Shown here piece after piece: positions 23,683-62,894 of a DNA stretch of 64,000 nt. The stretch spans positions 31,976-95,975 of the forward strand of contig JAFGAR010000025.1 in the NCBI GenBank assembly GCA_016933575.1, written 5' to 3'. Each line of letters begins with the position of its first letter. Positions within the stretch are counted from its first letter, which is position 1. The notes beneath the pieces are model-generated. The model saw nothing but the letters and a program-made list of their open reading frames with translations, was not told the origin of the DNA and searched no databases. The translations under genes were made by a program, and so were the position numbers. This DNA is from Candidatus Thorarchaeota archaeon (GTDB taxonomy: Archaea; Asgardarchaeota; Thorarchaeia; Thorarchaeales; Thorarchaeaceae).

Positions 23683-23769
23683 TAGAATGAATCACATCCA
23701 GGTATTCAGCCATTGCCAGTCTGACGTTGAATTAAACATACTGATACTGACATCTGGAGTAATTATTCA

Positions 23770-23835
23770 ATCTTGAAAAATAGTGTCGGTGAGCTGGCGA
23801 ACAGAGGTAAACCTCTGGTCACCAGCATATCCGAC
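23770..23835 (-). terminator. Long interrupted hairpin followed (on the minus strand) by a T5 run, downstream of the S8 protease gene
   Basis: GTCGG-tga-GCTGG-cgaa-CAGAGG-taaa-CCTCTG-gtca-CCAGC-atat-CCGAC spans 23785-23835. The minus-strand transcript continues into TTTTT (the complement of the A5 run near 23776-23780). Confidence 0.45.
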
Positions 23836-23934
23836 TTCGACTCGGAAAGGTTGTTTGTATTGAAATCAAACTCCCTTTAATATTTAAAGGACAGGTTTCA
23901 AGGCAATCAAAGTGTTTGAAGATACACCTTGAAA

Positions 23935-25932: not shown

Positions 25933-26106
25933 TCAAAAGTTACGCTGAATCCTCAAGAACCTATCGACATGGGTATAATTGAACCAAGCTGAAAAGCTTC
26001 AAAAGGTTCTTTCTCTAGCCGTCTAGTGTCGTAGGAATAATGGGACCATTCCAGTTTCATTTATCTGCGATAATATCATCATCTACTCCTTCAAGAGGTA
26101 TAGACT

Positions 26107-29049: not shown

Positions 29050-29138
29050 AATGCATATACAATGTATATACTCATACATATCTGCTATAGGGATTCTATA
29101 TATACCACATTAGAACAAAAAAGATTGAGGACTTACTC

Positions 29139-29990
29139 TTGACACGAATGACGACTCATAAGATTGGTCAGATGAAGACCAAGAGCAAGAAGATAGTCAT
29201 GCTCACAGCCTATGATGCACCTACAGCCTCGATTTTGAGTGAATGTGGTGTGGACATGATCCTTGTTGGAGACTCAGTGGGCAATGCTCTTCTTGGATAT
29301 GAGAGTACAATTCCTGTCACCCTTGATGATGTCATTCATCACTGCGCAGCTGTCTCAAGGGCACGACCGGATTCACTGATTATCGGCGATATGCCCTTTA
29401 TGTCCTATAAGGTCAGTGAGGAACAGGCTCTCGAAAATTGTGCACTTATGCTTCAAGAGGGCGGAGCTGAGGCAGTAAAGATCGAAGGTGCTGGCCGAGT
29501 TGTTGATATTGTACAAGCTGTCGTAGATGCTGGTATCCCGGTCATGGGGCATATTGGCCTTACTCCACAATCTATCTTTCAGATGGGTGGTTACCGAGTC
29601 CAGGGAAGAACAGCAGAAAAGACTGAGCTGCTCGTTGAACAAGCCAAGCAACTTGAGGCGGCTGGAGCCTTTTCTATGGTCATTGAGCTAGTACCATCAG
29701 AGACCGCGAAGATGATAACAGAAGCAGTTAGTATCCCAACTATTGGAATTGGAGCTGGTCCGTATTGTGATGGACAGGTTCTTGTCCTCTGGGATATGTT
29801 AGGTCTCTTTGAGGACTTTAAACCTAAATTTGTCAAAAAATATGCATGTATTCGTGATGTCATCAAGAATGCAGTTTCCGAATATGCAGAAGATGTACGG
29901 AAGGGTACCTTCCCTGAAAAAGAACATAGTTTTGAGATGTCAGAAGAAGAAACTGGACGTCTGTATGGTAGAAGTAAGCCCTCCCGATGA
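29139..29990 (+). CDS. panB: 3-methyl-2-oxobutanoate hydroxymethyltransferase
   Basis: KIVMLTAYDAPTASIL, ILVGDSVGNALLGYESTIPVTLDDVIHH and VKIEGA motifs. The ATG at 29148 is the likely start. Confidence 0.9.
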   Translation: MTRMTTHKIGQMKTKSKKIVMLTAYDAPTASILSECGVDMILVGDSVGNALLGYESTIPVTLDDVIHHCAAVSRARPDSLIIGDMPFMSYKVSEEQALENCALMLQEGGAEAVKIEGAGRVVDIVQAVVDAGIPVMGHIGLTPQSIFQMGGYRVQGRTAEKTELLVEQAKQLEAAGAFSMVIELVPSETAKMITEAVSIPTIGIGAGPYCDGQVLVLWDMLGLFEDFKPKFVKKYACIRDVIKNAVSEYAEDVRKGTFPEKEHSFEMSEEETGRLYGRSKPSR

Positions 29991-30009
29991 GGGCATGTCA
30001 TAAGATATC

Positions 30010-30231
30010 TTACTCTTCGTCTTCTACTACTTCATTGAGAACTTCAATGAGCTTGTCAGGATCGATGCCATGGGCAAGCGCACCCTGCTCAATGGTTTCA
30101 TATCGTGCTGCTGCGCAGCCATAACAGTGTAGCCCTGCTTCCATGAAGGCTCCGGCAGTCTCCGGCCATTTCATAACAACTTCAGCAATGCTCATATTCT
30201 TATTTACAGTCTGTGCCATTATAATCACCAT
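30010..30231 (-). CDS. DUF1858 / hybrid-cluster-protein-associated redox disulfide-type small protein
   Basis: 73 aa containing PETAGAFMEAGLHCYGCAAARYETIEQGALAHGIDPDKLIEVLN, which matches the family pattern CxGC followed by GID...L...LN. Confidence 0.7.
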   Translation of the reverse strand: MVIIMAQTVNKNMSIAEVVMKWPETAGAFMEAGLHCYGCAAARYETIEQGALAHGIDPDKLIEVLNEVVEDEE

Positions 30232-30326
30232 TAACTATGGTTAATACTGTAAACTCGGAAATTGGATTAATATACTTTGCTTTCTGACCTATTTCTCAAC
30301 CTTGATTACGGGACTCTGATGCAGGT

Positions 30327-30770
30327 CTACAGTATCATATTGTCTAAGCCCATCTCTCGTAGGACTTCAGGATAGATTTTATAGAGTGGCTTGATTTTCG
30401 AAAGTAGTCCAAGTGCCTTGGAAACAGATCCCTCAAGCTTGACCTGTCCCCTAGCCATTGCCACCGTTGTGGAAAGTTTATCCTGCCAGAATTTGTTTGT
30501 TGTTTCTGATTTTGACCAGACCTTAATCTCTGGTTCTACTGTACTATCAAATGTTAGAGTACCAATCTCGCCATCTGGTCCCGGGTCTCTAAAATTAATG
30601 GTCAGGTGTGCTTCAGGGTCTTCAATATCAAAGCGTACTACAACTTGTGATGTAGCAAGTTTCTGCATTACTTCAGACTCTTTCTTTGCTTCTATCCAGA
30701 ACTTGTTAAAAACTTCCATTAATTGATCTTTACTCTCAAAGGCTACCAAAATAATGACCTCCGATAGCAC
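30327..30770 (-). CDS. SCP2 (sterol carrier protein 2-like) lipid-binding domain protein
   Basis: The C-terminal GQVKLEGSVSKALGLLSKIKPLY motif and the size of about 140 aa are typical of stand-alone SCP2 proteins. Confidence 0.65.
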   Translation of the reverse strand: MLSEVIILVAFESKDQLMEVFNKFWIEAKKESEVMQKLATSQVVVRFDIEDPEAHLTINFRDPGPDGEIGTLTFDSTVEPEIKVWSKSETTNKFWQDKLSTTVAMARGQVKLEGSVSKALGLLSKIKPLYKIYPEVLREMGLDNMIL

Positions 30771-30824
30771 TTCCTATGTAAATTGTAGGATAGAAGTCTT
30801 TTGGGTGATACTAAAGATTGCCCG

Positions 30825-32174
30825 TTAGTTAGTAAGAAGGTATCTCTCAATCTCCCAAGGAGTAATCTCTGAACTTGGTAGGTCTCCAGTAGCTTCAATG
30901 AATTCAGACCATTCCTGACCTCTGATTCTCACCAAAGTATCCACAACGTTCTCTCCCAAGGCACTCCTTACGATTGTACTCCTTTCTAATCTCAATAGTG
31001 CATGAACTAAAGATTGTGGGAGTGATTCAAGAGAACCAAGTGACTTGTACACATCTCGATCTGTAGGCACCGGTGCATCAAGTTTCCGTTCTATTCCAGC
31101 CAATCCACTAGCAAGAAGCACTGCTATAGCCAAGTGTGGTGAAGATGAAGGATCGGGACATCTTATTTCTATTCTTGCTGACTTCTTTGAACCATTGAAA
31201 TGAGGTATCCGTATCATAGTACTGCGATTTCGGTAGCCCCACGCTATGCTTGTAGGAGCTTCAAAACCGGGTACCAACCTCTTGTAGGAGTTTACAGTAG
31301 GTGCAAGAATTGCTGCTAGTTCGTGTGCATCCTCTAAGAGACCTCCAATAAAGTGCATTGCAAGCGGAGAGATTCCACTAGGTCTTTCTGTTGCAAATAG
31401 ATTGTTTTCTCCTTGAAGATCCCAGACACTCTGGTGTAGGTGCATCCCTGATCCGTTCTGATTAGAGAAGGGTTTTGGCATAAATGTGGCAATCAATCCT
31501 CGTCTGTAAGCAATCTCTGAGATTATGAGCCTAGCAAGAAGTATGTTGTCTGCTGCCACTTCTGCTGAACAGTATTGAAGGCCAATCTCTTCTTGCCCCT
31601 GTGCGACCTCATGATGATGAGACGTAGTTGGAATGCCAACTGCCTGCAGAGTCCTGATAATATCGCGTCTAAAATCCAGACCACAGTCACTGGGCTGCGA
31701 GGAGAAATACCCTCCACGATCAAGAGGAACAAGAGTATCATCATGCAGTCGCCTGACAGTGAAGAACTCGAGTTCACTTCCAACCATTAACTGATATCCC
31801 ATTTTGTGAGCTTTATCTACAATCCTTCTAAGGATATATCTTGGATCACTCAGATGAGGTTGTCCTGATATTTCGTGGACCGTGCATATGATATAGGCAG
31901 CGGCAGGATCCCACGGTTGGAGAGTTGGGGTGGCGCTAGAAGGGAGAAGGAGAAGATCGCTCTCGTTAACCGACGCATATCCAGGGACTGATGAACCATC
32001 GATAACAATGCCATTCTCAAGGACCTCATCCAATCGATCATATCCAAGTTCTATGCTTCGAGTATGACCTAAAATATCTGTAAATAATAATCGTAGGAAT
32101 TCCGGATGTGTTACTTTACTGTCCATCAATAGTTCACCGTATGATATAGATAATTCAATTTTGAGAGAATTCAT
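30825..32174 (-). CDS. glnA: Glutamine synthetase (type I family)
   Basis: LRLLFTDILG N-terminal beta-grasp, FMPKPFSNQNGSGMHLHQS, NSYKRLVPGFEAP and IEIRCPD motifs. The start could be the Met at about 32126. Confidence 0.9.
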   Translation of the reverse strand: MNSLKIELSISYGELLMDSKVTHPEFLRLLFTDILGHTRSIELGYDRLDEVLENGIVIDGSSVPGYASVNESDLLLLPSSATPTLQPWDPAAAYIICTVHEISGQPHLSDPRYILRRIVDKAHKMGYQLMVGSELEFFTVRRLHDDTLVPLDRGGYFSSQPSDCGLDFRRDIIRTLQAVGIPTTSHHHEVAQGQEEIGLQYCSAEVAADNILLARLIISEIAYRRGLIATFMPKPFSNQNGSGMHLHQSVWDLQGENNLFATERPSGISPLAMHFIGGLLEDAHELAAILAPTVNSYKRLVPGFEAPTSIAWGYRNRSTMIRIPHFNGSKKSARIEIRCPDPSSSPHLAIAVLLASGLAGIERKLDAPVPTDRDVYKSLGSLESLPQSLVHALLRLERSTIVRSALGENVVDTLVRIRGQEWSEFIEATGDLPSSEITPWEIERYLLTN

Positions 32175-32287
32175 TGCACTTTATTTGAACCCTAAGGGCG
32201 CCGAAACTCGTTAGGTTTCCAGATGTCTGATACTGGGCAACGTAATTCTCTCTTGGTGTTACGTACAAGATTAGGCTATATTCATTT

Positions 32288-32353
32288 CCCGTAAAAATGA
32301 GAAAGTATTTCAGTATTTTCGGTGAAATATGCATTTAATCCGTAAAAATTTCG
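32288..32353. promoter_or_regulatory. Repeated CATTT-N2/3-CCGTAAAAAT motif in the glnA/lrp divergent intergenic region
   Basis: CCGTAAAAAT occurs at 32288-32297 and 32339-32348, each preceded by CATTT. The second copy forms CCG-N9-CGG (32339-32353), and the first CCG is matched by ATTTTCGG at 32314-32321. Confidence 0.4.
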
Positions 32354-32370
32354 GATTTATGGTGGTTTAG

Positions 32371-32862
32371 ATGCTGCAAATTAAACTTGATGATACCGAC
32401 CTGAAAATTCTAGAAATCCTTCAGAAGGATAGTAAGAGAAGCATCGCTAGTATTGCCAAGGAAGTGGGCAAAGGTATTTCCACCGTTCACGATCGAATCA
32501 AGACGCTTCAGAATGATGGCATCATCAAGGGATTCACTGCAATTGTATCACCTCAGACAGTGGGGCGCGAGACCCTTGCATTCATCCTTGTGACAATCAG
32601 GTATCGCGTACCGGGACAAAAGACAGTCCTTTCCCAGAGAGAGTTTTGCCAAGAAATTGCAGTTCACCCATTCGTACAGAGTGTTCATGTATTGAGTGGT
32701 GAATATGATGTACTATTGAAGGTACGCACAAAGAACATCGAGGAGATGAACCACTTCATTGTGGATTTTCTACGTGAGCTTCCTGCAGTTGATAAGACAC
32801 TGACAATGTTTGCTATGGATTCCTATCTCGATTCACTCGTACTTAGAGACCTATCTCTATAA
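32371..32862 (+). CDS. Lrp/AsnC family transcriptional regulator
   Basis: LDDTDLKILEILQKDSKRSIASIAKEVGKGISTVHDRIKTLQNDGIIKGF is the HTH, followed by a RAM/ACT-like C-terminal domain. The gene is divergent from glnA. Confidence 0.9.
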   Translation: MLQIKLDDTDLKILEILQKDSKRSIASIAKEVGKGISTVHDRIKTLQNDGIIKGFTAIVSPQTVGRETLAFILVTIRYRVPGQKTVLSQREFCQEIAVHPFVQSVHVLSGEYDVLLKVRTKNIEEMNHFIVDFLRELPAVDKTLTMFAMDSYLDSLVLRDLSL

Positions 32863-33104
32863 TTTTCTCTCTACATAGCCTACTGGGTTTTCAATCATTT
32901 TGGTACTTGCGTGATTTACTAATGCTCTATATTCATTATACTAAGATCTTTGGGTTGGAATTATTGGGGCAGATTTAGAATCGGAAATTGCCTCTATTTG
33001 CCTCTCAGCTCCGTAATTCTTGCCCAATTCACACCTTTAACTACCATCAGGAATTTCAAGGATAAAATTACGAGTTATATCAAAGATACTTATTATGAGT
33101 AAGT

Positions 33105-33776
33105 TCAATTGATTTTATCATTAGGGTTTTTTTGTGCTTTTTTCTGTAATGCTTGGACATATGCCTGAATAAAATCGCTATCGGTCCTCAAACGATACAG
33201 GTATTTCATTCCGCCCCAAGACGAATCGGAAGCTTTTTTCTCTACTATTTCAAGAGATTCCATTCTATCAATTATTCCATTTTTAGAATATACACGTTTT
33301 TGTGAGACGTTAGATTCTTGAATGATACTATGTTTGTTCATCCAACCTATCTTCTCTTGTGTAGAATATTCATTTGAAAAGTCTATACCCTTATCGAGAA
33401 GGAAATCTGCCATGGCCCTCAATACAGCTATCTCATCCGCAAGAAGGAATTTTTTCAGAAATACATCAAAATCTTGGGAAGAAAATGATAACCACTGTTC
33501 TATTGGTGTATTTGCAAGTTCGACATTCATTTTACTCGTACGATTAGCTAGAGCTTCTGTTCTTGTTGAAACAAGATAAAATGCAATTATGACAATAATG
33601 ACTGCAAGTATTGAAGTAGTGATTGCAATCAGAGGCAGTAATGATAGAAACGAGATTTGATTCAGAATAAATACAGAATGAGTTTCAAATTGTGTCATTT
33701 GCTTAATCATTACTATTCTCTGCAACTCGTTAGACACATTGAATCCCTTCACAATTACTAATCGGATTTTGAGCAA
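33105..33776 (-). CDS. Membrane-tethered winged-helix-like protein (uncharacterised)
   Basis: One long TM segment (LLPLIAITTSILAVIIVIIAFYLV) is followed by a wHTH-like region (HSIIQESNVSQKRVYSKNGIIDRMESLEIVEKK...GGMKYLYRL). The start is probably an internal Met (MIKQMTQ). Confidence 0.45.
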   Translation of the reverse strand: MLKIRLVIVKGFNVSNELQRIVMIKQMTQFETHSVFILNQISFLSLLPLIAITTSILAVIIVIIAFYLVSTRTEALANRTSKMNVELANTPIEQWLSFSSQDFDVFLKKFLLADEIAVLRAMADFLLDKGIDFSNEYSTQEKIGWMNKHSIIQESNVSQKRVYSKNGIIDRMESLEIVEKKASDSSWGGMKYLYRLRTDSDFIQAYVQALQKKAQKNPNDKIN

Positions 33777-33860
33777 GTTTTCTGTTCAAAGGATACTTGA
33801 GAACCTTCATAGTCGCTATTCAAACTGTCTTATCAATTATCTGTATTTTTTCCGTGAATG

Positions 33861-36206
33861 TTAGTACATCTGTTTCCGTAACCGTGTTTCTTTACCAATA
33901 ACTACCAAACCAATGACAATGATTATAGATGCGGTCACCGTAGCAATAGCAGAAATGAGAATCTCAATAGTATTCTCTGTTGAATGAAGTTCAACAATAA
34001 AAGTCTGAATACTGGATGCAACATAATTACCTGCGCGATCATAAGCAATAATCCGATAATCAACAATTGAAGAATTCGTAATTGGAGGAATTATTGCCAC
34101 CCATACTCCTTGCGCTTTAGTCATTGTGATATTTACCCAGTCTGAATTGCTATGCACCATATATGAAAGAATTACAATAGTTACTTCAATATCATCAGTG
34201 ACGTTTGCTCTAATGATGATCGAATCGGTTATTGTCGGATTTTCAGGAACTTGGGTAATTGATTGAATGGTTGGAGGCGTTGTATCTTCTGGATATATCG
34301 AGAAGGTGTAATAACTTCCTAAATTGTCATTGATTGCTGTATTGTGATTAAGAGAATCATCCTGAGCTGAAATATAGTACCGAATTGAGTCATGAACTTC
34401 AAAATCGCACAACTCAATGTGAAAAATATCATCAAACAAATATTGCATAGAAAAACCATGCCAACCATCATTATTCACTTGGTAATAAAGAGATGCGGAA
34501 CTAACTCCTGAATTATCTCTGATTGTTGCATTGATATTCACAACATCATCAACAGTAGGCAATGATGGGTAATGAATAACATTAGTTATTCCAGGTCCAG
34601 TCCAATCGTTGCTTCTTATATAGAAGGAGTAATTGGCTCCTTTATTATCATCAATGGCTGTATTATGATTTTCAGAGTTATCAATAGCAAACACCTGATA
34701 TTCTACGTTGCTTCCTGCTACAAGTGGATTGAAGGTATATTCGTAAAGATCATCCTGCACCTCTTTAAAAGTTGACGAAATCCAAAATTCGTCATTTATT
34801 TTGTAAGTAATATTGACTGATAATAATCCCGACAAATCTCTCACATTTGTTCTCACGGTCACTATGTCTGTGTCGAAAGGAAGTGTGGGTTCATGGAAGG
34901 TATTTTCTATTCGTGGAGTTATGTTGTCAGGATTTGTGAGAAAACTAGCAAATACTGCTAGCATCTCTAAAACAAGCCCTTGTGACAACCACTGCTTCCA
35001 TGTATGGATCGTCCCATCTGCCTTTTTACGCATGTATATTCCACCATATACACTATCTAATAGGTCATTATAGATAACCGATTTGAATCGATACGCTTCT
35101 TCAAGAATGGTATCATTTGCCAGAAGGATTCCAGTCCAAAGATATCCTATAGCGGTATTGGGATCTTTTTCTCCGCTCACCTCATTATTCACATAACTTG
35201 TCCATTCCCGGTTCATCTCCATCAGATATCCTGCAGACGAGTTTGCCTTGAGTATATCATCAAATGTTTTTTGAGCATAAACAAGATACGTATCATTTCC
35301 CAATATTCGGTATGCATCAACAAGCATTCTATAATTATCAAACCATCCCTTTGAATCCTTAATTATTGTTGTCCAGTTCGCGGCAACTCGGTTATAGAAC
35401 CAACCATAGTTTTCGTCATACATGTAATTGATGTAATTATTAATTAATTCAATAGCTCTTTCCTTATAGGTGGCATTTTGAGATATTTCGAAGGTTTCCA
35501 ATAGAAATCTGATACACCATGAAATATCGTTGATGTCATTCATATCCTCAATAACAGTGAGTGTGGATGATAGAGTTGTATAATAACTTCCATCTGAAGG
35601 ATCATAGTAATTTTCGACTATGAAAGCATATAACTCCTCTATATAATCCAAATAGATATTATTTCCAGTTACTGAATAGAGCTTCGCTAAAGCAGTACCA
35701 GTAAGGCATTGAAACCATAGTCGTTTGTTGCCAACCTCGATGCTATTATCCTGGGCAAGTCTTTCATAGTATCCACCATGTACAGCGTCCCAGAAGTGAG
35801 ATCGATCCCAATTCCATATGTCCTCAGCATACTCAAGATACGATTCATTCTCTGTAAATGAATAGGCTTCAGTAAGACCTAAGATGCACTGAGCATCGAA
35901 GTACGCTTTCTTGCCTACTGACCATGCATAGTCTGTGAAATTATCCCAGACTTCCACTTGCCAGCCTCCACCAAAGGAAGATAAATTGAAGTAATTAAAA
36001 ACAAAGAAGAGATTTTGAATTGCATCCTCATAGTCCTGAATGGACCATGTATCAGCAGATGCTATAGAATGCTTTACAATTGTGGATTCTTTCTGTTTAG
36101 GTGGAGTATCGACTCCTCTCAAATACAAAATTGGGGAAAGAACTAATACTATCACAATTAACGAGATAATCCATCTTTGGCAAAACTCTCCCATCTTACT
36201 TTCCAA
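33861..36206 (-). CDS. Surface protein with AGE-superfamily (alpha/alpha)6-barrel-like domain, three Ig-like repeats and a C-terminal TM anchor
   Basis: It has a signal anchor and a recurring D-x3-GG(Y/F)Y hairpin motif (DAVHGGYYERL, DPSDGSYYTTL, DENYGWFYNRV, DSVYGGIYMRK). Three repeats of about 105 aa each lie at about 33990-34950, followed by a C-terminal TM. It is a paralogue of the N-terminus of the 37214 gene and shares YLEYAEDIWNWD. Confidence 0.65.
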   Translation of the reverse strand: MESKMGEFCQRWIISLIVIVLVLSPILYLRGVDTPPKQKESTIVKHSIASADTWSIQDYEDAIQNLFFVFNYFNLSSFGGGWQVEVWDNFTDYAWSVGKKAYFDAQCILGLTEAYSFTENESYLEYAEDIWNWDRSHFWDAVHGGYYERLAQDNSIEVGNKRLWFQCLTGTALAKLYSVTGNNIYLDYIEELYAFIVENYYDPSDGSYYTTLSSTLTVIEDMNDINDISWCIRFLLETFEISQNATYKERAIELINNYINYMYDENYGWFYNRVAANWTTIIKDSKGWFDNYRMLVDAYRILGNDTYLVYAQKTFDDILKANSSAGYLMEMNREWTSYVNNEVSGEKDPNTAIGYLWTGILLANDTILEEAYRFKSVIYNDLLDSVYGGIYMRKKADGTIHTWKQWLSQGLVLEMLAVFASFLTNPDNITPRIENTFHEPTLPFDTDIVTVRTNVRDLSGLLSVNITYKINDEFWISSTFKEVQDDLYEYTFNPLVAGSNVEYQVFAIDNSENHNTAIDDNKGANYSFYIRSNDWTGPGITNVIHYPSLPTVDDVVNINATIRDNSGVSSASLYYQVNNDGWHGFSMQYLFDDIFHIELCDFEVHDSIRYYISAQDDSLNHNTAINDNLGSYYTFSIYPEDTTPPTIQSITQVPENPTITDSIIIRANVTDDIEVTIVILSYMVHSNSDWVNITMTKAQGVWVAIIPPITNSSIVDYRIIAYDRAGNYVASSIQTFIVELHSTENTIEILISAIATVTASIIIVIGLVVIGKETRLRKQMY

Positions 36207-36552
36207 CCTATTATATTCCTAGAATCCTGTTTTTCTATGTACAGAACAAAAAGAAAAGTGTGTCTCTTTTTTACAAGCAAGATTTGTATCTAAAGTCGGC
36301 ATTTTACAAAATAGAGTTTTTTCCAACGATTTAAATTGATTTAAAATCTTATGAAAAGAGATTTTGCAATATTATGGCTATTGAATGCTCTATTTTAGAG
36401 TAGAAAAGATTGAATCCAAAAACTTACACTTTTCTTCCGATTCTTTTTCTTTTCATGTATTCACAACAGCACGAATACAGGAGTGTATGTTATGGTGTTA
36501 GGTGGGGGGTCCTTAGAATTGCTATCAAGAATACGAGGGAGAGTCTTGAAGA

Positions 36553-37233
36553 ATGAACATTGAATCAAAAACTGAATCGAATCGATCCAATCTTACTACT
36601 GGAAAAATAGTAACTATTGTTGGAGTGTTGATTTTCCTCTTCATTCACTTTTTATTCGGGTTAATCATTACTTTTATTGGAGGGCTTATTCAACTATGTG
36701 AAAACCAATCTTCAAGAGCAATCGTTTCTTCTTCGCGCGAAGAAGAAACACAGCAATCCTGTCCAAAATGTGCAAGCCTTCATTTCTATCACTATTCAGA
36801 AAAAGATGTATTTGGAAGAATTATTTGTAAATCTTGTGGACATCTCTTCCATTCCAGTAAAGATGTTAGAACTCCTGATGGTTCAACTTATTCAGAGGAA
36901 ACAAGATATCCACCTAAGGGATTTCCTCGTTCAATTGGACCAGATGATTGCGAGACTTCTCAGGCGGCAGTGGGTCTTGCAAATACACAGTTTGAGTTTG
37001 AAGCAGTAAGACGTGTGATTAGAGATATGGCAGGAGTACTTGGTCAAGACAGACTTACTGACATGATTCGAACTGGTTTTACGTACATGAGTGCAAACCG
37101 GGTTGGTGCAGCTTTAGCTTGCTTTTACGAAGCCGAACTTCTTGAATTCAATGATCCCCGTTTAGAGAAGATCCGACTTGAGTTTGGGCAACCACATATG
37201 AGTTTCAAAAAAATTGCAGAGAAGGTGCTTTAA
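36553..37233 (+). CDS. TM-hairpin plus zinc-ribbon protein (uncharacterised)
   Basis: N-terminal hydrophobic hairpin (IVTIVGVLIFLFIHFLFGLIITFIGGLIQL), a zinc ribbon CPKC...CKSCGH (about 36759-36841) and a helical C-terminus. Its stop lies 1 nt before the in-frame TTG of the giant gene. Confidence 0.6.
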   Translation: MNIESKTESNRSNLTTGKIVTIVGVLIFLFIHFLFGLIITFIGGLIQLCENQSSRAIVSSSREEETQQSCPKCASLHFYHYSEKDVFGRIICKSCGHLFHSSKDVRTPDGSTYSEETRYPPKGFPRSIGPDDCETSQAAVGLANTQFEFEAVRRVIRDMAGVLGQDRLTDMIRTGFTYMSANRVGAALACFYEAELLEFNDPRLEKIRLEFGQPHMSFKKIAEKVL

Positions 37234-40200
37234 GTTGATATTCAGAGGGGTTAAATCGCGGAATACTCAAATTGCCAGTCTAATTGTGTTACTGCTAATC
37301 AGTGTATGCATATTTTCAATTAATCCACCAAATCTTACACTATCGACAAGCAAGACCAAATTGATCAACAGCGAAATGCTCAGTCCTCATGGTCAATCAA
37401 GCCCTTCGATAAGTGATTCATGGTCCTATAATGATTACTTAACCGGTATAGAGGAAATCTTTGACACTTTCAATAAATTCAATCTCTCAAAATACGGAGG
37501 TGGGTGGCAATATGAAGTGACACGCGATTGGACTGATGCCGCATTTACAAATGGCAAATATATAGCACATGATTCAGAGTGTATTATGGGTCTACTGAGC
37601 GCGTATGTTTTGATTGGAGATACGAAATATCTTGAGTATGCTGAGGATATATGGAACTGGGATCTGACATACTTCCTTGATAATACGTATGGCGGGTATT
37701 ATGTAAGATTGAACCAAGACAACTCTGTTGCAATTGATGATAAGGGTATGTTTGAGCACGGTTGGTTTGGACTGGCAACAGCTCAATTGTATAATGTAAC
37801 AGGAAATTCGACCTACCTAAATCAAATGAACTACATCTATTCTTTCGTTACAAGCAATTTCTATGATTTTGGAGATGGCAGTTATTATGGGGCATTGAGT
37901 AGAAACTTAGGGGTACTTGTATCAGATGTTGATACAAATTGGTGCGCGCCATATGCCAGATTCTTACTGAGTGCATATCTCTTCACGGGGAATTCTACAT
38001 TTGGCGATAAGGCAATCGAATTGGTTGATAACCTAATGAATTACGCCTATGATTCACAGTACGGATGGATTGTGAACCGCGTATCTTCGGATTGGGCTTC
38101 ATTCGTGAACACAGCGAAAGGGTGGTATGATGTTCTCCAGACATTCATTGATGCTTATCGCGTATTTAGTAGTCCATCATATTTGATATTCGCACAAACC
38201 TGTTTTTATGACATCCAACAGGCAAAATCAACTGCTGGATACCTAAGGGAGATGAACCGCGATTGGACAACAACTGTGAATAATGAGCTCTTAGGTGAAG
38301 AGGATCCCGGTGTTGCTATTGCATATCTTAGAATTGCATGTGAATTGGAAAATTCAACAATTCTTCAAGAATCCTATAGATACAAAGATGCAATCTATGC
38401 AGGTCTCCATGACCCTGTATATGGTGGAATTTACAGACGAATTTACTCAAGTGGCAGTCAGAGTACTTGGAAACAATGGTGTGGAGCTGGACGTGTCATG
38501 GAAATGCTTGCTGAATTCGCTACGCCAAGTAAAAACCAAACAATCTCAGTTTTGGTGTGGGGCGATGCAGATCCGAATGGTCAAGAAAAAGCTGGACGCA
38601 CAATCGCTGAAAATCTCGAAGAAATTGGATTGAATGTAACTTTTGTTTCAGATTTCAGTGATTTAGAAAATGAGCTCGTAGATTACAATTACCAGTCATT
38701 GATACTTGTAGCAATGCCTTGGAGTGATGTATATTCCAATATTCCCTCTTCAACAGAGAACCTAATTGAATCCCTTGTGAGTACTAGTGAATTAGGGCTT
38801 GTGGGATTTCATGACATTATTTGGCAAAATGCAAATAATCCTATACTAGAAACTATTTTTGGCGGAACTCTAAGCTCTTTTAGAGATAGGGATTCAATAT
38901 ATTCAATCGTGAATATATCGCACCCTATTGTGCAAGAATTGCCATCTAGTTTCCTCCTAGATGATGACCAATTATTGAGGGGATCGTGGGAGAGTGGTGT
39001 TGAAATTGTTATGGAAGCTGATTACTTGCACACTCCCGTTGTAGTCACAAATGAATACGGTGGTGGGAGATCGGTCTATATAGCAACTGGGGGTGGCTCT
39101 GGCTACAGTAGTGCTATAGTCAATAATGACACAAATTTGGTCCAATTGTATAGAAATGCCGTTTTTTGGTCGTGCAATATCACGGATAATTCCGAAACAC
39201 CATCATCTAACATGGCACTCTATTTCGATGGTTCTGATGAAGTTATCATTCCAAGCGATTCATCACTCAACCCAACCTCTGCTCTCACAGTTATGGCTTG
39301 GATTCATGCTGATGATTGGGTCGGAAATCAAAGGATTTTACAAAAAGGCGTTGATGATCAATATCGGCTCTTGGATGAAGGCAACTTGGAATTTGGTCTT
39401 GCAGGAGTTTCTGGTGGCGATATTGGAACGCCTCTACCAACAACAGGTGAATGGCATCATGTTGCAGGAACATATGATGGTTCTACTATTTCATTGTATG
39501 TCGATGGAGTTGAGAGAGTATCAAATTCTGCAAGTGGTTCTTTGCAAACTTCCAGTACTTCATTGTATATAGGAAATAAACCCTTGAGTTCGTATCCGGG
39601 GGATCGTTTCAAAGGAATTATTGATGAAGTTAGAATCTATAACAGAGCCCTATCAAATCAAGAAATCAATAACACAATGATCAATACATCACCTGCGACT
39701 TCTGGACTTGTTCTGTATCTATCTTTCGACATACTGGATGGCTTTACTTGTCCAGATTATTCTGGGTATGGGAATAATGGCACCAATTATGGTGCCGAAA
39801 TTGTAACATCATTTGATTGGAATGATATCAATCCTCATCTTGAATATCCGACAACTCCTCAGTTTGAGAACTTGCCTGCATCAATTTCAGTTGACACGTT
39901 CACTGCTCAATGGAATGAATCCACTCTATCTGGTTTTGTAATACTCTACTATGAGCTACAAATTGATACATCGCCTAGTTTTTCGAGCCCTAATGAATAC
40001 AGTGTCTATGCTACTACTTACGAATTGACGGATCTCATAGATGGTATATATTATCTAAGAGTGCGTGCTGTTGATGAGAGATTACTTAGAAGCGAATGGA
40101 GTTCTGTCAGTACAATATCGGTGGATCTGCCAGAAATTCACTATCCCACAATACCTGAGTTTGCGAATCTGGTGCCATTTGTCAATACAAGTATGTATAC

Positions 40201-43200
40201 CGTTGAATGGACTGAATCTGAGGTTGAAGGGGCTAACATTGATTACTATGAACTTGAAATGGACCAATCGAGCAGTTTCTCAACTCCAAGTCAGTATGTT
40301 TCTGTAAGTACTTCTCATGAGTTGCATGATTTAGTCAATGGAACCTATTACCTTAGAGTACGAGCCGTTGATGATCGAGAGTTGAGAAGCAGCTGGAGTA
40401 CAACAGGAACGTTCACAGTTGGAATTTCTTATATTGTACCAATCGACAGCATTCTACCAATACCTCTCTTCCATCAACATCCAAGAGGTGTCACTACATC
40501 CTATTTTTCGATATCGTGGTCATTACCTCAAAGCTATAATGAAAACGATTTTACTTATGAAATTCAGATTTCTGATGCGGCAGATTTCAGTGATGCATCG
40601 CCCATAATCACAACACAAACAATGCAAATATTCACACTTGATAGAGAGGACTGGTATTACCTTCGGGTTCGTTCCTTCAATGCAACATACCAAAGCGATT
40701 GGAGTGAAACGACAAGAATAGCAGTTCTAGTTTCCACCCTATCTATTGATAACTCTGAATACATCACGATAATTGAAAATAGTATAGACCAATTCATTAT
40801 CTGGGAGATTAATAGTCACTTTTACTTCAACTATTCAATAGAGATAGGTCATGAAATTCATGATGTTGGTTATTTCCGTGAAGAAAATGTCACACTCTCA
40901 GTACATGATTTTCCTGTGGGCACATATTACATTACGCTAACTGTCATTGATGTGATTGGCAGGGAATACCAAGCTGAAGTAGAATTGCATATCGCACAGA
41001 ATTTTTCCGAAGTATTATCTATGCTTGGCACAACATCGCTTGTTGGCTTCTTTCTCTTTTTCATTGGAGTTTTAATCTACAAGAAATATCCTCGTAAGAA
41101 CTGGAAAGATGATGTACGACGTCAGGTAGAAAACACTGGTACAGTATCTTTAGAATTTCTCGCAACATCAAATGAAGTAAACGTCCCAATACTTACTGAC
41201 CATCTCGCATCTGCAGATTATGCTCTAGTGTCTATTGCAGGTATTGTCTATAGTATCGGAAAAATCCTAGATGAAGTAAGAAACAAGCTATTTCACGAAG
41301 ACCGGGTCGAGATCTCACAATTCATCAATGAATATGGTTTACAACATGACCAATTTAAATCACTGATACTTAAGCACCAAAACGAATTCATACTAACTGA
41401 ACATTACGTTTATAATCGGACCAAAATAATTGAAAATCTTAAGGAACGTTTTCAGAAAACAAATTCACTTGATACTGATTTGTTCTATCAAGAAACAGAT
41501 ATTGCGCCTAGCATAACCGAAACTCTGTTGAGTAAAACTGGTCTACATTGTTTCTCCTATAATGATCACACATTCAAATGTGTTGATTATGATGGATTGA
41601 AGTTCATTGATCAGGCAAAAGAGAATGGATTCGTTTTTGTGACTCAAGCTAATGAAAATTCATCAACATATCTTGGAGAACTAAAGTCGTTTCTTTCCTT
41701 GAGGAGGGAGGATGTCGTATATAGTTCAAGCTTGAACCTTCTTGTTAGTACAAAATGGCTATCAAACTTGAGAACAGCCGTTTATGATCAAGGAAAAGTA
41801 GAAATCCAAGATCTTGCCAACAAATACGGTATATCTCCAACCATTATGTTATCACTATTGCAATATTTCCTACAAGGTACCGTTTCATCAGACAATCAGC
41901 AGTTCTATGTAGAGTCACGTAGAATAGAGCGAGCTAGTGATGCTCCAACAACCAGATGGGTTCAACCTAGTCTGAGAACCGTATATCATTCGAACCCGCC
42001 ACCTGCAGGTGTCCAATTCCAAGCACCGGTGATAAATGCAGAAGAGTCTGAACTAGCTAAATGTGTTCAGATATGTGGATGCATTTGGCTTCCAATCAGT
42101 CTTGTGATGATTTTCATTACCCCTTTTGGAAGTGCAGCTGTTATAGTTACAGCCATGCTAGCATTCCTGTGGAGATCGCTGTCAGGCAACCCAAAGAAAA
42201 ATCTTGTCCGTGGACAAATTATACAAAAGCCTGCTAAATTGCAGCCTGATGGAAGATACTTGTGTCCATACTGTCTCACTCCCAAGGAATATGTTGCAGA
42301 AGAGATGAATGATAAAGGATCGGTCTATTGCAAGGAATGCCATGCAATAATCCCTCTTAAAGTAGCATTTGAGTATCCTGCAACTGTTAGTGACACATCT
42401 GCCATTGAACCCACTTCCTCTACATATGAAACAAGCGCTTCTAGAACTGAACCTAAAAGTACGACTAAGAGCGAAATTCCAAAACAGACACGCAGATTTA
42501 TGCTTCTAGGATGCATTGGTGTTGGATTAATCGTAATATCTTACATTCTTCAATACTATACCTACCTATTGATTTTTGAAATAGATACAATAGGGATGAG
42601 TGAGATTGTGTATATTGCTTCAACCTCGTTAGATGTGGTCGGAAGCCTGTTATTAGCATGTGGACTCTTCGCATTACGTGAAAGACATTCTAGCTACTTC
42701 TTTGTAGCTGCAATTGTACTATTGGTGGTTTTACCATTACGATTTTTGGTTGGGCCTATCTTGGTAGATTCTTTTGGTTTCTTGTACATATTGGCTATCT
42801 ATTTCCTCCTATTCTTGAAGTATCTGTTGATTGCATTGGGTATTTTAAAACAAAAAAGCTCTAGTGAGTATCCCTCACTATGGAATGGAACTTGGATAGT
42901 CCTTGTGGCCTGGGGATCTATTAATTCTTTCTTACCACTTCTTATGGGCGGTGTATATTCGCGTTCATCAATCGATATCGTCTATATCCCTGGTATAATT
43001 ATGAATATAGTTGGAGGATTTGCCCTTAGCTTGATCTTTCTCTCGGAGATTAGAATCATTGATCCAACACCTATCATTCGTTATGCGGAAAAAATTATGG
43101 GATTTGTGATTTTAATCGCAGGGATAGGATTGTCCTTACTAGGTCTTATCAGTTGGGTAATCTATATTCCTGTTTTTAGCGAGAGCTGGTTGGGAGAAAT

Positions 43201-43261
43201 TGGAGGTTTTACTGCCATTATTGTTGGACTAGTATTGATTAGAAATGATCGAAGAACGTAA
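37214..43261 (+). CDS. Giant (about 2015 aa) multidomain transmembrane protein with extracellular carbohydrate-binding-type domains, cytoplasmic winged-helix-like repeats and a polytopic C-terminus
   Basis: One uninterrupted ORF with no early ATG. The likely start is the in-frame TTG at 37235, giving (M)IFRGVKSRNTQIASLIVLLLISV as a signal anchor. The domain layout is listed in the following entries. Confidence 0.85.
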   Translation: MQRRCFKLIFRGVKSRNTQIASLIVLLLISVCIFSINPPNLTLSTSKTKLINSEMLSPHGQSSPSISDSWSYNDYLTGIEEIFDTFNKFNLSKYGGGWQYEVTRDWTDAAFTNGKYIAHDSECIMGLLSAYVLIGDTKYLEYAEDIWNWDLTYFLDNTYGGYYVRLNQDNSVAIDDKGMFEHGWFGLATAQLYNVTGNSTYLNQMNYIYSFVTSNFYDFGDGSYYGALSRNLGVLVSDVDTNWCAPYARFLLSAYLFTGNSTFGDKAIELVDNLMNYAYDSQYGWIVNRVSSDWASFVNTAKGWYDVLQTFIDAYRVFSSPSYLIFAQTCFYDIQQAKSTAGYLREMNRDWTTTVNNELLGEEDPGVAIAYLRIACELENSTILQESYRYKDAIYAGLHDPVYGGIYRRIYSSGSQSTWKQWCGAGRVMEMLAEFATPSKNQTISVLVWGDADPNGQEKAGRTIAENLEEIGLNVTFVSDFSDLENELVDYNYQSLILVAMPWSDVYSNIPSSTENLIESLVSTSELGLVGFHDIIWQNANNPILETIFGGTLSSFRDRDSIYSIVNISHPIVQELPSSFLLDDDQLLRGSWESGVEIVMEADYLHTPVVVTNEYGGGRSVYIATGGGSGYSSAIVNNDTNLVQLYRNAVFWSCNITDNSETPSSNMALYFDGSDEVIIPSDSSLNPTSALTVMAWIHADDWVGNQRILQKGVDDQYRLLDEGNLEFGLAGVSGGDIGTPLPTTGEWHHVAGTYDGSTISLYVDGVERVSNSASGSLQTSSTSLYIGNKPLSSYPGDRFKGIIDEVRIYNRALSNQEINNTMINTSPATSGLVLYLSFDILDGFTCPDYSGYGNNGTNYGAEIVTSFDWNDINPHLEYPTTPQFENLPASISVDTFTAQWNESTLSGFVILYYELQIDTSPSFSSPNEYSVYATTYELTDLIDGIYYLRVRAVDERLLRSEWSSVSTISVDLPEIHYPTIPEFANLVPFVNTSMYTVEWTESEVEGANIDYYELEMDQSSSFSTPSQYVSVSTSHELHDLVNGTYYLRVRAVDDRELRSSWSTTGTFTVGISYIVPIDSILPIPLFHQHPRGVTTSYFSISWSLPQSYNENDFTYEIQISDAADFSDASPIITTQTMQIFTLDREDWYYLRVRSFNATYQSDWSETTRIAVLVSTLSIDNSEYITIIENSIDQFIIWEINSHFYFNYSIEIGHEIHDVGYFREENVTLSVHDFPVGTYYITLTVIDVIGREYQAEVELHIAQNFSEVLSMLGTTSLVGFFLFFIGVLIYKKYPRKNWKDDVRRQVENTGTVSLEFLATSNEVNVPILTDHLASADYALVSIAGIVYSIGKILDEVRNKLFHEDRVEISQFINEYGLQHDQFKSLILKHQNEFILTEHYVYNRTKIIENLKERFQKTNSLDTDLFYQETDIAPSITETLLSKTGLHCFSYNDHTFKCVDYDGLKFIDQAKENGFVFVTQANENSSTYLGELKSFLSLRREDVVYSSSLNLLVSTKWLSNLRTAVYDQGKVEIQDLANKYGISPTIMLSLLQYFLQGTVSSDNQQFYVESRRIERASDAPTTRWVQPSLRTVYHSNPPPAGVQFQAPVINAEESELAKCVQICGCIWLPISLVMIFITPFGSAAVIVTAMLAFLWRSLSGNPKKNLVRGQIIQKPAKLQPDGRYLCPYCLTPKEYVAEEMNDKGSVYCKECHAIIPLKVAFEYPATVSDTSAIEPTSSTYETSASRTEPKSTTKSEIPKQTRRFMLLGCIGVGLIVISYILQYYTYLLIFEIDTIGMSEIVYIASTSLDVVGSLLLACGLFALRERHSSYFFVAAIVLLVVLPLRFLVGPILVDSFGFLYILAIYFLLFLKYLLIALGILKQKSSSEYPSLWNGTWIVLVAWGSINSFLPLLMGGVYSRSSIDIVYIPGIIMNIVGGFALSLIFLSEIRIIDPTPIIRYAEKIMGFVILIAGIGLSLLGLISWVIYIPVFSESWLGEIGGFTAIIVGLVLIRNDRRT
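37390..38530 (+). other. Giant protein domain: AGE-superfamily (alpha/alpha)6-barrel-like
   Basis: It shares YLEYAEDIWNWD and D-x3-GG(Y)Y hairpin motifs (DNTYGGYYVRL, DFGDGSYYGAL, DSQYGWIVNRV, DPVYGGIYRRI) with the 33861 protein. Confidence 0.6.
38540..39175 (+). other. Giant protein domain: ThuA-like (class I glutamine amidotransferase-like fold)
   Basis: ISVLVWGD, GLVGFHD, HPIVQELPSSFLLDDD, PVVVTNEYGGGRSVYIATGG and LYRNAVFWS follow the ThuA family pattern. Confidence 0.6.
39211..39680 (+). other. Giant protein domain: LamG / concanavalin A-like lectin
   Basis: ALYFDGSDEVIIP, LTVMAWI, EWHHVAGTYDGSTISLYVDG and FKGIIDEVRIYNRALSNQEI are typical Laminin_G_3 motifs. An extra LamG N-terminal-like fragment (GLVLYLSFD...DYSGYGNNGTNYGAEI) follows at about 39700-39800. 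Confidence 0.75.
39846..40730 (+). repeat. Giant protein: three tandem Fn3-like repeats of about 95 aa
   Basis: The repeat cores are YYELQIDTSPSFSSP...YYLRVRAVDERLLRSEWS, YYELEMDQSSSFSTP...YYLRVRAVDDRELRSSWS and TYEIQISDAADFSDA...YYLRVRSFNATYQSDWS. Confidence 0.75.
41132..41930 (+). repeat. Giant protein: five tandem cytoplasmic winged-helix-like modules of about 55 aa
   Basis: These follow the TM helix at about 41020-41085. The recurring pattern is exemplified by DRVEISQFINEYGLQHDQFKSLILKH and GKVEIQDLANKYGISPTIMLSLLQYFL, each followed by a short beta-hairpin-like stretch and a helix. Confidence 0.4.
42058..42343 (+). other. Giant protein: TM hairpin plus zinc ribbon
   Basis: Hydrophobic hairpin CVQICGCIWLPISLVMIFITPFGSAAVIVTAMLAFLW, then CPYC...CKEC (about 42263-42343). 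This is the same arrangement as the stand-alone 36553 protein. Confidence 0.55.
42490..43258 (+). other. Giant protein: C-terminal polytopic membrane domain (about 7-8 TM helices)
   Basis: A continuous series of hydrophobic helices follows a Ser/Thr-rich linker (SDTSAIEPTSSTYETSASRTEPKSTTKS). Confidence 0.6.
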
Positions 43262-43432: not shown

Positions 43433-43729
43433 CTAAATCACTCGAAGGCTGACGCCTACCAGAGCTCGAAGTCTCTCAATCTCGTTCTGCAATTCGTGAA
43501 TCCTTTCGATATCTGCATGATAGACCTGTTTTCTCATGTCCATCAGATTGGGTACTTTTCGCAATAGTTTCTGTCTGATTAATTTCTGAAGGGCAAAGGT
43601 GACCGTTCTCAGCGGGATTTTTGATTCTCTTGAGAGATCACGTGGAGCCATCGGTCCATGAATTGCCAGATGGTCCAGTATCAGAAGAGCACTCTTTGGA
43701 AGGTCGTTTGGAGTCATCATATTCTTCAC
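43433..43729 (-). CDS. Small winged-helix (MarR/TrmB-like) transcriptional regulator
   Basis: LILDHLAIHGPMAPRDLSRESKIPLRTVTFALQKLIRQKLLRKV followed by a coiled C-terminal helix. Confidence 0.7.
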   Translation of the reverse strand: MKNMMTPNDLPKSALLILDHLAIHGPMAPRDLSRESKIPLRTVTFALQKLIRQKLLRKVPNLMDMRKQVYHADIERIHELQNEIERLRALVGVSLRVI

Positions 43730-62777: not shown

Positions 62778-62894
62778 CTTTGAAAGAGTGTTTATATATC
62801 AGGCAACATGCCTCTAGTTGTTTATTTATCCCTCTCTAGTGCATTTTCGATTTTTGGAAAAATATTTGACTCTTTCAAAGAGTGTCTAATATAC
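62778..62894 (+). repeat. Direct repeat of a CTTT(G/C)AAAGAGTGT + TA-box element (tandem promoter-like units)
   Basis: CTTTGAAAGAGTGTTTATATATC lies at 62778-62800 and CTTTCAAAGAGTGTCTAATATAC at 62872-62894. The second copy covers the GTG that the ORF track uses as a start. Confidence 0.4.

Follow-up and report, generated by a model that had tools for sequence, protein, structure and literature searches.

What can a protein do that carries carbohydrate-type modules on one side of the membrane and a row of winged-helix domains on the other? This question is raised by one gene in a stretch of 64,000 nucleotides from Candidatus Thorarchaeota (contig JAFGAR010000025.1, positions 31,976 to 95,975), which was analysed as a whole and is called the window below. 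The gene encodes MBN2228331.1, P0005 among the proteins compared here and referred to as the giant. It comes from a metagenome-assembled genome (MAG) of Candidatus Thorarchaeota, where it lies on a 116.9-kb contig, and its GenBank name is "ThuA domain-containing protein", a name that covers the ThuA domain alone, about 10% of the protein. A preliminary description, made from the DNA letters, had seen in it a single-chain device working from the outside in. The answer that we favour, and hold to be somewhat short of probable, is that the giant is a Thorarchaeota-specific mosaic surface protein acting as a transmembrane adaptor.

The gene itself is intact, and the uninterrupted reading frame of about 2015 codons reported earlier is present as follows:

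37214 to 43261, plus strand: coding sequence of the giant (scan of open reading frames (ORFs), GenBank record)

It is a single unbroken frame, 2015 codons counted from the first TTG at 37214, with no frameshift or internal stop. GenBank places the start at TTG 37235, which gives 2008 aa, and the stop is at 43259-43261. Since seven other homologues, assembled independently, keep the same order of parts, an assembly chimera was rejected, and the giant is a real membrane protein of 2,008-2,015 residues. The list of domains, their order and the inferred topology in the preliminary description were right, almost domain for domain. Scans with Pfam and NCBIfam found no kinase, cyclase or protease domain in the giant, which upholds the earlier statement that a classical enzymatic output domain is absent.

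The part of the chain from the first transmembrane (TM) helix onwards was modelled with AlphaFold2 (AF2) and contains the following features, where WH stands for winged helix:

41021 to 41077, plus strand: TM helix TM1, residues 1270-1288, followed by KKYPRK (hydropathy, AF2)
41102 to 41911, plus strand: five tandem UFL1/PCI-type WH units (AF2, Foldseek, hhalign, PF09743)
41102 to 41254, plus strand: unit WH1 (AF2)
41255 to 41416, plus strand: unit WH2 (AF2)
41417 to 41593, plus strand: unit WH3 (AF2)
41594 to 41749, plus strand: unit WH4 (AF2)
41750 to 41911, plus strand: unit WH5 (AF2)
41912 to 42049, plus strand: Pro-rich linker with the motif TRW.QPSLR.VY..PPP.G.Q.QAP (alignment of eight members; low model confidence)
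42050 to 42187, plus strand: tight TM helical hairpin, helices at about residues 1617-1635 and 1638-1656, with a TPFGS turn (hydropathy, alignment, AF2)
42263 to 42340, plus strand: Cys4 zinc ribbon CPYC-x18-CKEC, residues 1684-1709 (alignment)
42362 to 42481, plus strand: Ser/Thr-rich acidic linker (sequence, charge)
42482 to 43258, plus strand: orphan 8-TM helical domain, an optional module, residues 1757-2015 (AF2, hydropathy)

In the AF2 model of residues 1267-2015 (749 aa, from a 5-sequence alignment, mean predicted local distance difference test score (pLDDT) 57) the region behind TM1 forms five consecutive units of about 55 aa with the order H-E-H-H-E-E, the canonical winged-helix pattern. 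The pLDDT is about 80 for WH1-3, about 70 for WH5 and lower for WH4. When profiles of the family units were compared by hhalign they aligned in register, WH5 matching WH1, WH2 and WH3 with a probability of 90-95%, and WH4 was the most divergent unit. A Foldseek search against the PDB gave just two matches with E<0.01, each of them to a row of tandem WH domains. The top match was chain E of 9gy4, an E3-UFM1 ligase on the 60S subunit (9gy4_E; E=8.3e-5, 345 columns, probability 1.0), and UFL1 was confirmed as a chain of that entry. The second was SelB (4zu9, E=5.9e-3). The predicted fold thus identifies the cytoplasmic repeats as a UFL1/PCI-type tandem winged-helix array. The five helix-rich modules of about 55 aa with a pattern like the winged helix-turn-helix (wHTH), noticed earlier, are therefore there (41102-41911), but they had been left unclassified, and this is corrected by the UFL1 match and by the relatives described next.

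The Pfam family of the ligase, PF09743 (E3_UFM1_ligase), matches the WH region of the giant at 18.8 bits (E=0.0014), under the gathering cut-off of 23.2 bits. Two remote relatives exceed it, P0012 with 46.3 bits and P0010 with 37 bits, while P0011 (22.2) and P0009 (14.9) fail. P0012 and P0010 were recovered by the family profile at E=1e-4 and E=7.5e-7, respectively, and share the unit length, 55-57 aa. Searches of PDB sequences with the family profile A2 and with P0012 showed no connection to UFL1 or any other protein. With the single-unit profile A5 the top PDB matches were designed helical repeats, which are artefacts, and no natural WH protein had an E below 0.01; weak matches to SelB (2ply) were among the hits. 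A profile hidden Markov model of the repeat unit scored 13 bits against residues 1-389 of human UFL1, too weak to count.

The array of the giant is acidic, with an isoelectric point (pI) of 5.1 and 25 Lys and Arg against 36 Asp and Glu, and the same holds for all eight full members of the family (pI 4.4-5.8). No OmpR/Trans_reg_C match was found in the giant with Pfam. Tandem WH domains had been proposed as a scaffold for either proteins or nucleic acids. The acidic array makes nucleic-acid binding unlikely, and it is docking of proteins that is favoured.

Behind the array the hairpin, the CPYC...CKEC ribbon and the Ser/Thr-rich linker follow in the order given in the preliminary description. 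The four cysteines of the ribbon are invariant in 8/8 members, and Pfam zinc-ribbon matches to it are weak. At the cytoplasmic start of the first hairpin helix (42050-42075, residues about 1613-1621) there are also conserved cysteines, C.QICGCIW, which lie close in sequence to the Cys4 ribbon and might be a further metal site. The C-terminal domain, described before as having about 7-8 TM helices, has eight. Modelled separately (260 aa, 9-sequence alignment) it shows eight long TM helices with a pLDDT of 80 and a predicted template-modelling score (pTM) of 0.70. Foldseek found no fold match for it in the PDB (best E=0.11), with template-modelling scores (TM-scores) that did not exceed 0.38 for natural proteins and 0.47 for designed helical repeats, and Pfam has no match. 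Because there is no fold match, the suggestion that this domain is a channel or transporter was rejected as unsupported. The domain is related to the standalone proteins P0013-P0018 (444-448 aa, with a B-box-like zinc finger and about 10 TM helices), which were the only proteins returned when the 8-TM profile was used in a word-indexed search, an erratic method that missed the giants. Genes for such standalone zinc-finger polytopic proteins occur in the same kind of surface-protein cluster, at loci L002, L010 and L011. The one in L002 lies 4 kb from the homologue of the giant, and the one in L011 directly follows a pair of genes that is also found beside the giant (w781 and w223, see below). 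This pattern of fusion and fission ties the function of the polytopic module to that of the cluster, without revealing the module's role.

How common is such a protein? The search for homologues proposed in the preliminary description was run exhaustively, with a family profile of TM1, WH array, hairpin and zinc ribbon scored against all 1.84 billion representatives, and it gave nine proteins at E<=1e-3, five of them at E<=1e-30. A scan of genome contigs covering 185,579 species genomes gave a single match, a locus in a Thorarchaeota MAG. Two scans of metagenome contigs gave no family match, and a 6-sequence core profile in the word-indexed search returned P0009 alone. P0009 and the members of the P0008 cluster are annotated as Thorarchaeota, and so is every family member that can be placed. 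The family is very rare and specific to Thorarchaeota. The literature that was searched holds no description of such an architecture, and no account of the fusion to a surface receptor, of the module of hairpin and zinc ribbon or of the 8-TM domain, which agrees with the earlier remark that it is not a described family.

The part common to 8/8 full members is the core module of about 450 aa, that is the TM helix, five WH units, the Pro-rich linker, the hairpin and CPxC...CxxC. This module is conserved at 18-57% identity while the ectodomains change. They are LamG-Fn3-Ig in P0001-4, LamG-3xFn3-Ig in P0006, LamG-Fn3-ThuA-Fn3-Ig in P0008 and AGE-ThuA-LamG-3xFn3-Ig in the giant, so that ThuA is placed at a different position of the chain in P0008 than in the giant. 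The other end of the chain varies as well. It stops at the zinc ribbon in P0002-4 and P0008, and the 8-TM domain is present in only three of the eight members (the window protein, P0001 and P0006). The head of the giant (residues 23-437) is 77% identical to that of a 1254-aa protein of L011 (1757-5521, minus strand), which consists of an (alpha/alpha)6 head and Kelch beta-propeller repeats, and its LamG domain is 78% identical to the LamG of a LamG/FG-GAP protein in L010. These identities indicate that the giant is a recent mosaic built round a conserved cytoplasmic core. A single-chain scaffold reaching from the outside in is still the most economical reading, but the idea of a fixed device is contradicted by the 8-TM domain, which three of eight members have and which is a separate gene elsewhere, and by the head shared with the Kelch protein. 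At L004/L005 (8904-12042) the P0009 homologue appears broken into three ORFs (LamG 167 aa, 144 aa and 594 aa); two independent assemblies agree on the breaks, and it is therefore probably a decaying gene.

The extracellular side of the giant is made up of these features:

37265 to 37321, plus strand: N-terminal signal anchor or signal peptide, residues 18-36 (hydropathy)
37391 to 38533, plus strand: (alpha/alpha)6 AGE/GH76-like domain, residues about 60-440 (weak Pfam matches, phmmer against the PDB)
38549 to 39169, plus strand: ThuA-like domain, residues 446-652 (PF06283)
39227 to 39670, plus strand: LamG (Laminin_G_3) domain, residues 672-819 (PF13385)
39701 to 39823, plus strand: conserved segment behind LamG, residues 830-870 (sequence, alignment)
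39845 to 40732, plus strand: three Fn3-like domains, residues 878-971, 977-1071 and 1082-1173 (PF00041, three stretches)
40733 to 41002, plus strand: Ig-like beta-sandwich domain, residues 1174-1263 (Pfam Ig-like match, core repeat)

All these domains were found in the order of the preliminary description, and the TM helix that it had put at about 41020-41085 is TM1. Residues 37-1269 were taken as the ectodomain because 21 of the 24 N-x-S/T sequons of the giant sit there, as expected. The head matches PF07221 (GlcNAc_2-epim) at 22.8 bits, which is borderline to the cut-off of 23.4, and the matches to GH76 and GH127 are weak. Compared with PDB sequences by phmmer it finds cellobiose 2-epimerase (E=3e-9) and, more weakly, mannanases of GH76 (E=6e-4), and by this sequence match it is assigned to the AGE / (alpha/alpha)6 barrel superfamily. 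ThuA is matched over the full length of the profile (38.8 bits, cut-off 33.4) and LamG at 106.9 bits (E=1.4e-30, cut-off 27.6 bits). P0001, P0003 and P0004 keep the segment behind LamG, SGLVLYLSFD...GNNGTNYG, while P0002 has lost part of it; by eye it is an N-terminal LamG fragment, resembling the strand that usually precedes Laminin_G_3 cores. The cores of the Fn3 domains read YYLRVRAVD or YYLRVRS and are 71-82% identical at the DNA level (repeat family D1, diverged), which speaks for an old duplication and not for a repeat made by the assembly. A fourth and weaker copy of the core, YYITLTVID, lies inside the Ig-like domain, a region where P0009 has weak PKD/E-set matches in Pfam. Another surface protein of the window, w739 (50013-52232, minus strand, 739 aa), has a C-terminal Ig-like domain and a TM anchor, and residues 1228-1291 of the giant are 36% identical over 64 aa to its C-terminal end (50022-50201).

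The preliminary description had overlooked that certain genes recur beside the family. In the window, and for one of the gene families also at the other loci, they are:

36553 to 37233, plus strand: w226, 226 aa, a paralogous TM hairpin and Cys4 zinc ribbon with a helical C-terminal domain of about 120 aa (profile)
33105 to 33776, minus strand: w223, a TM-anchored "GWRNKY" winged-helix-like protein (homologues by family loci)
33861 to 36206, minus strand: w781, a surface protein with a paralogous (alpha/alpha)6 domain, beta-sandwich repeats and a TM anchor at its C-terminus (identity, PF07221)
L001, 6922-7974: GWRNKY family site
L002, 6472-7497: GWRNKY family site
L004, 7392-8443 and 5182-5403: GWRNKY family sites
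L007, 11627-12785: GWRNKY family site
L010, 3485-4510: GWRNKY family site
L011, 5918-6325 and 9041-9640: GWRNKY family sites

The gene w226 is directly upstream of the giant and in the same orientation, its stop codon TAA (37231-37233) being 1 nt before the TTG at 37235. It matches the profile of hairpin and zinc ribbon at 37 bits (E=3e-11 among the window ORFs), and its orthologue is directly upstream of P0008 in L008 (E=7.5e-52). It is a separate gene in the window and in L008 and is fused in frame in L004, where the helical domain of the w226 type follows P0009 in frame, behind a TAA. In w223 a single TM helix is combined with a conserved domain of about 90 aa that contains the GWRNKY motif; this domain has no Pfam match and, read by eye, is an extended wHTH. 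Homologues of w223 stand beside the family in L001, L002, L004 and L007, and GWRNKY-WH genes are found in 5/6 distinct family loci. Homologues are also encoded in the loci L010 and L011 with zinc-finger polytopic genes. Some of these proteins are anchored by a TM helix, others are short and soluble (for example the one at L007, 11627-12034), and in one case the domain forms the cytoplasmic tail of a NosD-like surface protein. A basic pI of about 10 is seen in the soluble proteins but not in those with a TM helix.

The third gene, w781, is directly upstream of w223 on the same strand. It is 45% identical to residues 20-437 of the giant and matches PF07221 at 39.5 bits, and orthologues with 70-71% identity stand beside w223 orthologues in L007 and L011, the pair recurring in that order. 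NosD-like beta-helix proteins recur in L001, L002, L004, L008 and L010. The GC content of the window at about 32000-38000 is 0.37, as compared to 0.43-0.44 in the flanks, and this stretch coincides with the end of the synteny with L006, past the AsnC gene; it looks like a variable surface-protein island.

Other genes of the region were also noted. P0012 (L006, 8001-9998), with an N-terminal TM helix and about 10 UFL1-like WH units, is encoded by a gene that overlaps the stop codon of the gene for a P-type cation ATPase; the region around it is syntenic with 22441-32862 of the window (MFS, S8 protease, ATPase, PanB, GS and AsnC). Where L006 has the P0012 gene the window has 90 bp only (29049-29139), so that one genome carries the gene and the other lacks it. 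Immediately downstream of the giant lie a 98-aa ORF (43433-43729, minus strand), by eye a small wHTH of the MarR/TrmB type, and w378 (43872-45008, plus strand), whose 378 aa contain two wHTH domains (HTH_24/AsnC-type, Pfam). Further on, 45080-48142 (plus strand) encodes a fusion of an APH-type phosphotransferase, an M23 peptidase and a class-III aminotransferase (Pfam), and 62882-63844 (plus strand) a caspase-like (Peptidase_C14) protein. An Arf-family small GTPase with an N-terminal extension is encoded at 7176-8060 (plus strand), and genes for GTPases of the Arf, Ras or Roc families are found in L001, L002 and L010 as well; GTPases of this kind are frequent in Asgard archaea. Searches of the window for tRNA and Rfam features gave nothing, and the anti-phage defence models of PADLOC-DB gave no match for the giant, w226, w223, P0012 or P0013.

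The transmembrane adaptor could work as follows. A single TM helix holds the extracellular stack of carbohydrate-type modules to the membrane, and the WH array is cytoplasmic, with TM1 fixing one of its ends to the membrane and the tight hairpin the other. By analogy with UFL1-DDRGK1, ESCRT-II and PCI complexes, the array may form a protein-docking rod along the inner face of the membrane. Its likely partners would be its gene neighbours at most loci, the small GWRNKY WH proteins, whether membrane-anchored or soluble, and w226, which could pair with the giant in the membrane through the hairpin and zinc-ribbon module that they share. The interchangeable ectodomains would bind or process glycans outside the cell or in its envelope, and through the constant cytoplasmic module the surface protein would be coupled to partners inside the cell, in order to signal or to organise the surface coat. 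Several observations weigh against this. The 749-aa model is poor at WH4, the linker and the zinc ribbon, and the Foldseek TM-scores of the array are low, 0.14-0.17 overall and 0.14-0.16 to UFL1, so that what matches is a succession of units rather than a rigid shape. Searches by sequence only gave no significant link of the family to UFL1. The partners are proposed from the gene neighbourhood at six loci of one phylum, and in L008 there is no GWRNKY gene within 10 kb. The heavy shuffling of ectodomains could also mean that the cytoplasmic part is a mere anchor.

This last possibility leads to a different explanation, in which the giant is passive in the cell envelope, its ectodomain being a surface enzyme or adhesin of the coat, and its cytoplasmic parts are an elaborate anchor or packing with no transmission across the membrane. 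We regard this as unlikely, but it has to be taken seriously. Many other surface proteins of the locus have a simple TM anchor at the C-terminus (w781, w739 and the NosD-like proteins), the ectodomain modules are exchanged freely among unrelated proteins, and the giant has no output enzyme. However, anchoring would not call for a conserved module as large as about 450 aa, in which five domains are folded and a Cys4 site is invariant; for this the neighbouring surface proteins use just one TM helix and about 10 residues. The cytoplasmic partners are also kept across loci. It is very unlikely that the giant is a membrane-tethered one-component transcription regulator, similar to ToxR/CadC or acting through regulated proteolysis, in which glycan binding outside controls either the binding of DNA by the WH domains or the release of these domains. 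The WH is the commonest DNA-binding fold in archaea, several wHTH genes are close by (w223, the 98-aa ORF at 43433-43729, w378 and AsnC), and the soluble GWRNKY-WH paralogues are basic. The array of the giant, on the other hand, is acidic in every member with few Lys and Arg, it is bound to the membrane at both ends, its closest structural relatives are protein or RNA scaffolds and not DNA binders, and no site-2 or rhomboid protease was found among the nearby genes scanned. An artefact, by which mis-assembly of the metagenome bin or annotation joined separate genes, is hardly credible. It could explain why the exact combination from AGE, ThuA and LamG to the 8-TM domain is found in one cluster of size 1 only, why the head is so similar to that of a different protein elsewhere and why the exact product is absent from the contig index. 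Against it stand the unbroken frame, the identical sequence sourced from both NCBI and Logan in the cluster record, and the DNA divergence of the Fn3 cores. Furthermore, all junctions from LamG onward are repeated in independent assemblies from ENA, JGI, Logan and NCBI, and the 8-TM fusion is repeated in P0001 and P0006/P0019.

The structural match suggests yet another role, a platform similar to UFL1/DDRGK1, in which the membrane-pinned array docks ribosomes or an Ufm1-like conjugation machinery of Asgard archaea at the membrane, much as UFL1-DDRGK1 works at the endoplasmic reticulum of eukaryotes. The top match is UFL1 on the 60S subunit and the second the RNA-binding WH array of SelB, and both P0012 and P0010 pass PF09743. 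UFL1/DDRGK1-like proteins in Asgard archaea are the subject of one sentence in Picchianti et al. 2023, where an Asgard origin of UFL1 and DDRGK1 is reported (PMC10183829), and Ufm1 homologues were reported from nine Asgard clades in 2026 (PMC12962969). Nevertheless, the giant itself is under the PF09743 cut-off and has no significant direct sequence match to UFL1, and its acidic array is unfavourable for contact with rRNA. In the AF2 model only about 8 residues separate TM1 from WH1, which seems to leave no room for an N-terminal UFC1-binding helix of the UFL1 type. A Pfam scan of the 39 ORFs of the window revealed no Ufm1, UFC1 or UBA5-like gene, the scan covering the window only. For these reasons we think it rather improbable that the giant serves as such a platform.

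What the family adds is a shuffling cluster of surface genes in Thorarchaeota and two orphan modules, the hairpin with its zinc ribbon and the 8-TM bundle. Its weight is limited by its being tiny and confined to one phylum.

Compared with known systems, the ectodomain modules are the same as in archaeal and bacterial surface glycan-binding proteins of the LamG/Fn3/Ig/NosD type, to which w781, w739 and the NosD-like proteins among the neighbours also belong. Those proteins stop shortly past the TM helix, whereas the giant and its homologues add the cytoplasmic module of about 450 aa and sometimes the polytopic domain. ToxR and CadC are similar in that one chain holds an extracytoplasmic domain, one TM helix and a cytoplasmic winged-helix domain or domains, but the giant has its sensor at the N-terminus, opposite to their order, its WH units are five and acidic where they have one basic wHTH of the OmpR type, and its array is anchored a second time. 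A DNA-binding signature was looked for in the array and not found. The standalone proteins P0013-P0018, which are unannotated, share the arrangement of a zinc-binding domain, a linker and a polytopic bundle, and also the C-terminal hairpin element SW..YIP.FS..LGE; they differ in being separate genes with another N-terminal zinc finger and more helices, at only 24-28% identity. SelB and EF-Sec have a C-terminal row of four tandem WH domains, which in SelB bind SECIS RNA and follow a GTPase, while the array of the giant is acidic, tethered to the membrane and not accompanied by a GTPase.

UFL1 with its membrane-anchored partner DDRGK1/UFBP1 is similar to the giant in its consecutive PCI-like WH units of about 55-60 aa, forming one array at the membrane. 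In the giant this array is part of a polytopic chain, flanked by a TM helix and a TM hairpin, and fused to an ectodomain, and the short gap between TM1 and WH1 suggests that the UFC1-binding helix and the partial WH completed by DDRGK1 are missing. UFL1 and DDRGK1 are thought to be older than UFM1 and of Asgard origin. It is decidedly a long shot that the module of TM helix, five WH units, hairpin and zinc ribbon is a prokaryotic, membrane-pinned version of the UFL1-DDRGK1 scaffold, wired to a surface glycan receptor. If it were, then together with the P0012-type proteins with a TM helix and about 10 WH units it would imply that UFL1-type arrays were already membrane docking platforms in Asgard archaea, before there was an endoplasmic reticulum, and that the partners of the platform could be ribosomes, Ufm1-like modifiers or WH proteins. 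The family places a UFL1-type WH array in a defined context, doubly tethered to the membrane and with candidate partners encoded next to it, and this gives a testable entry point to such a comparison.

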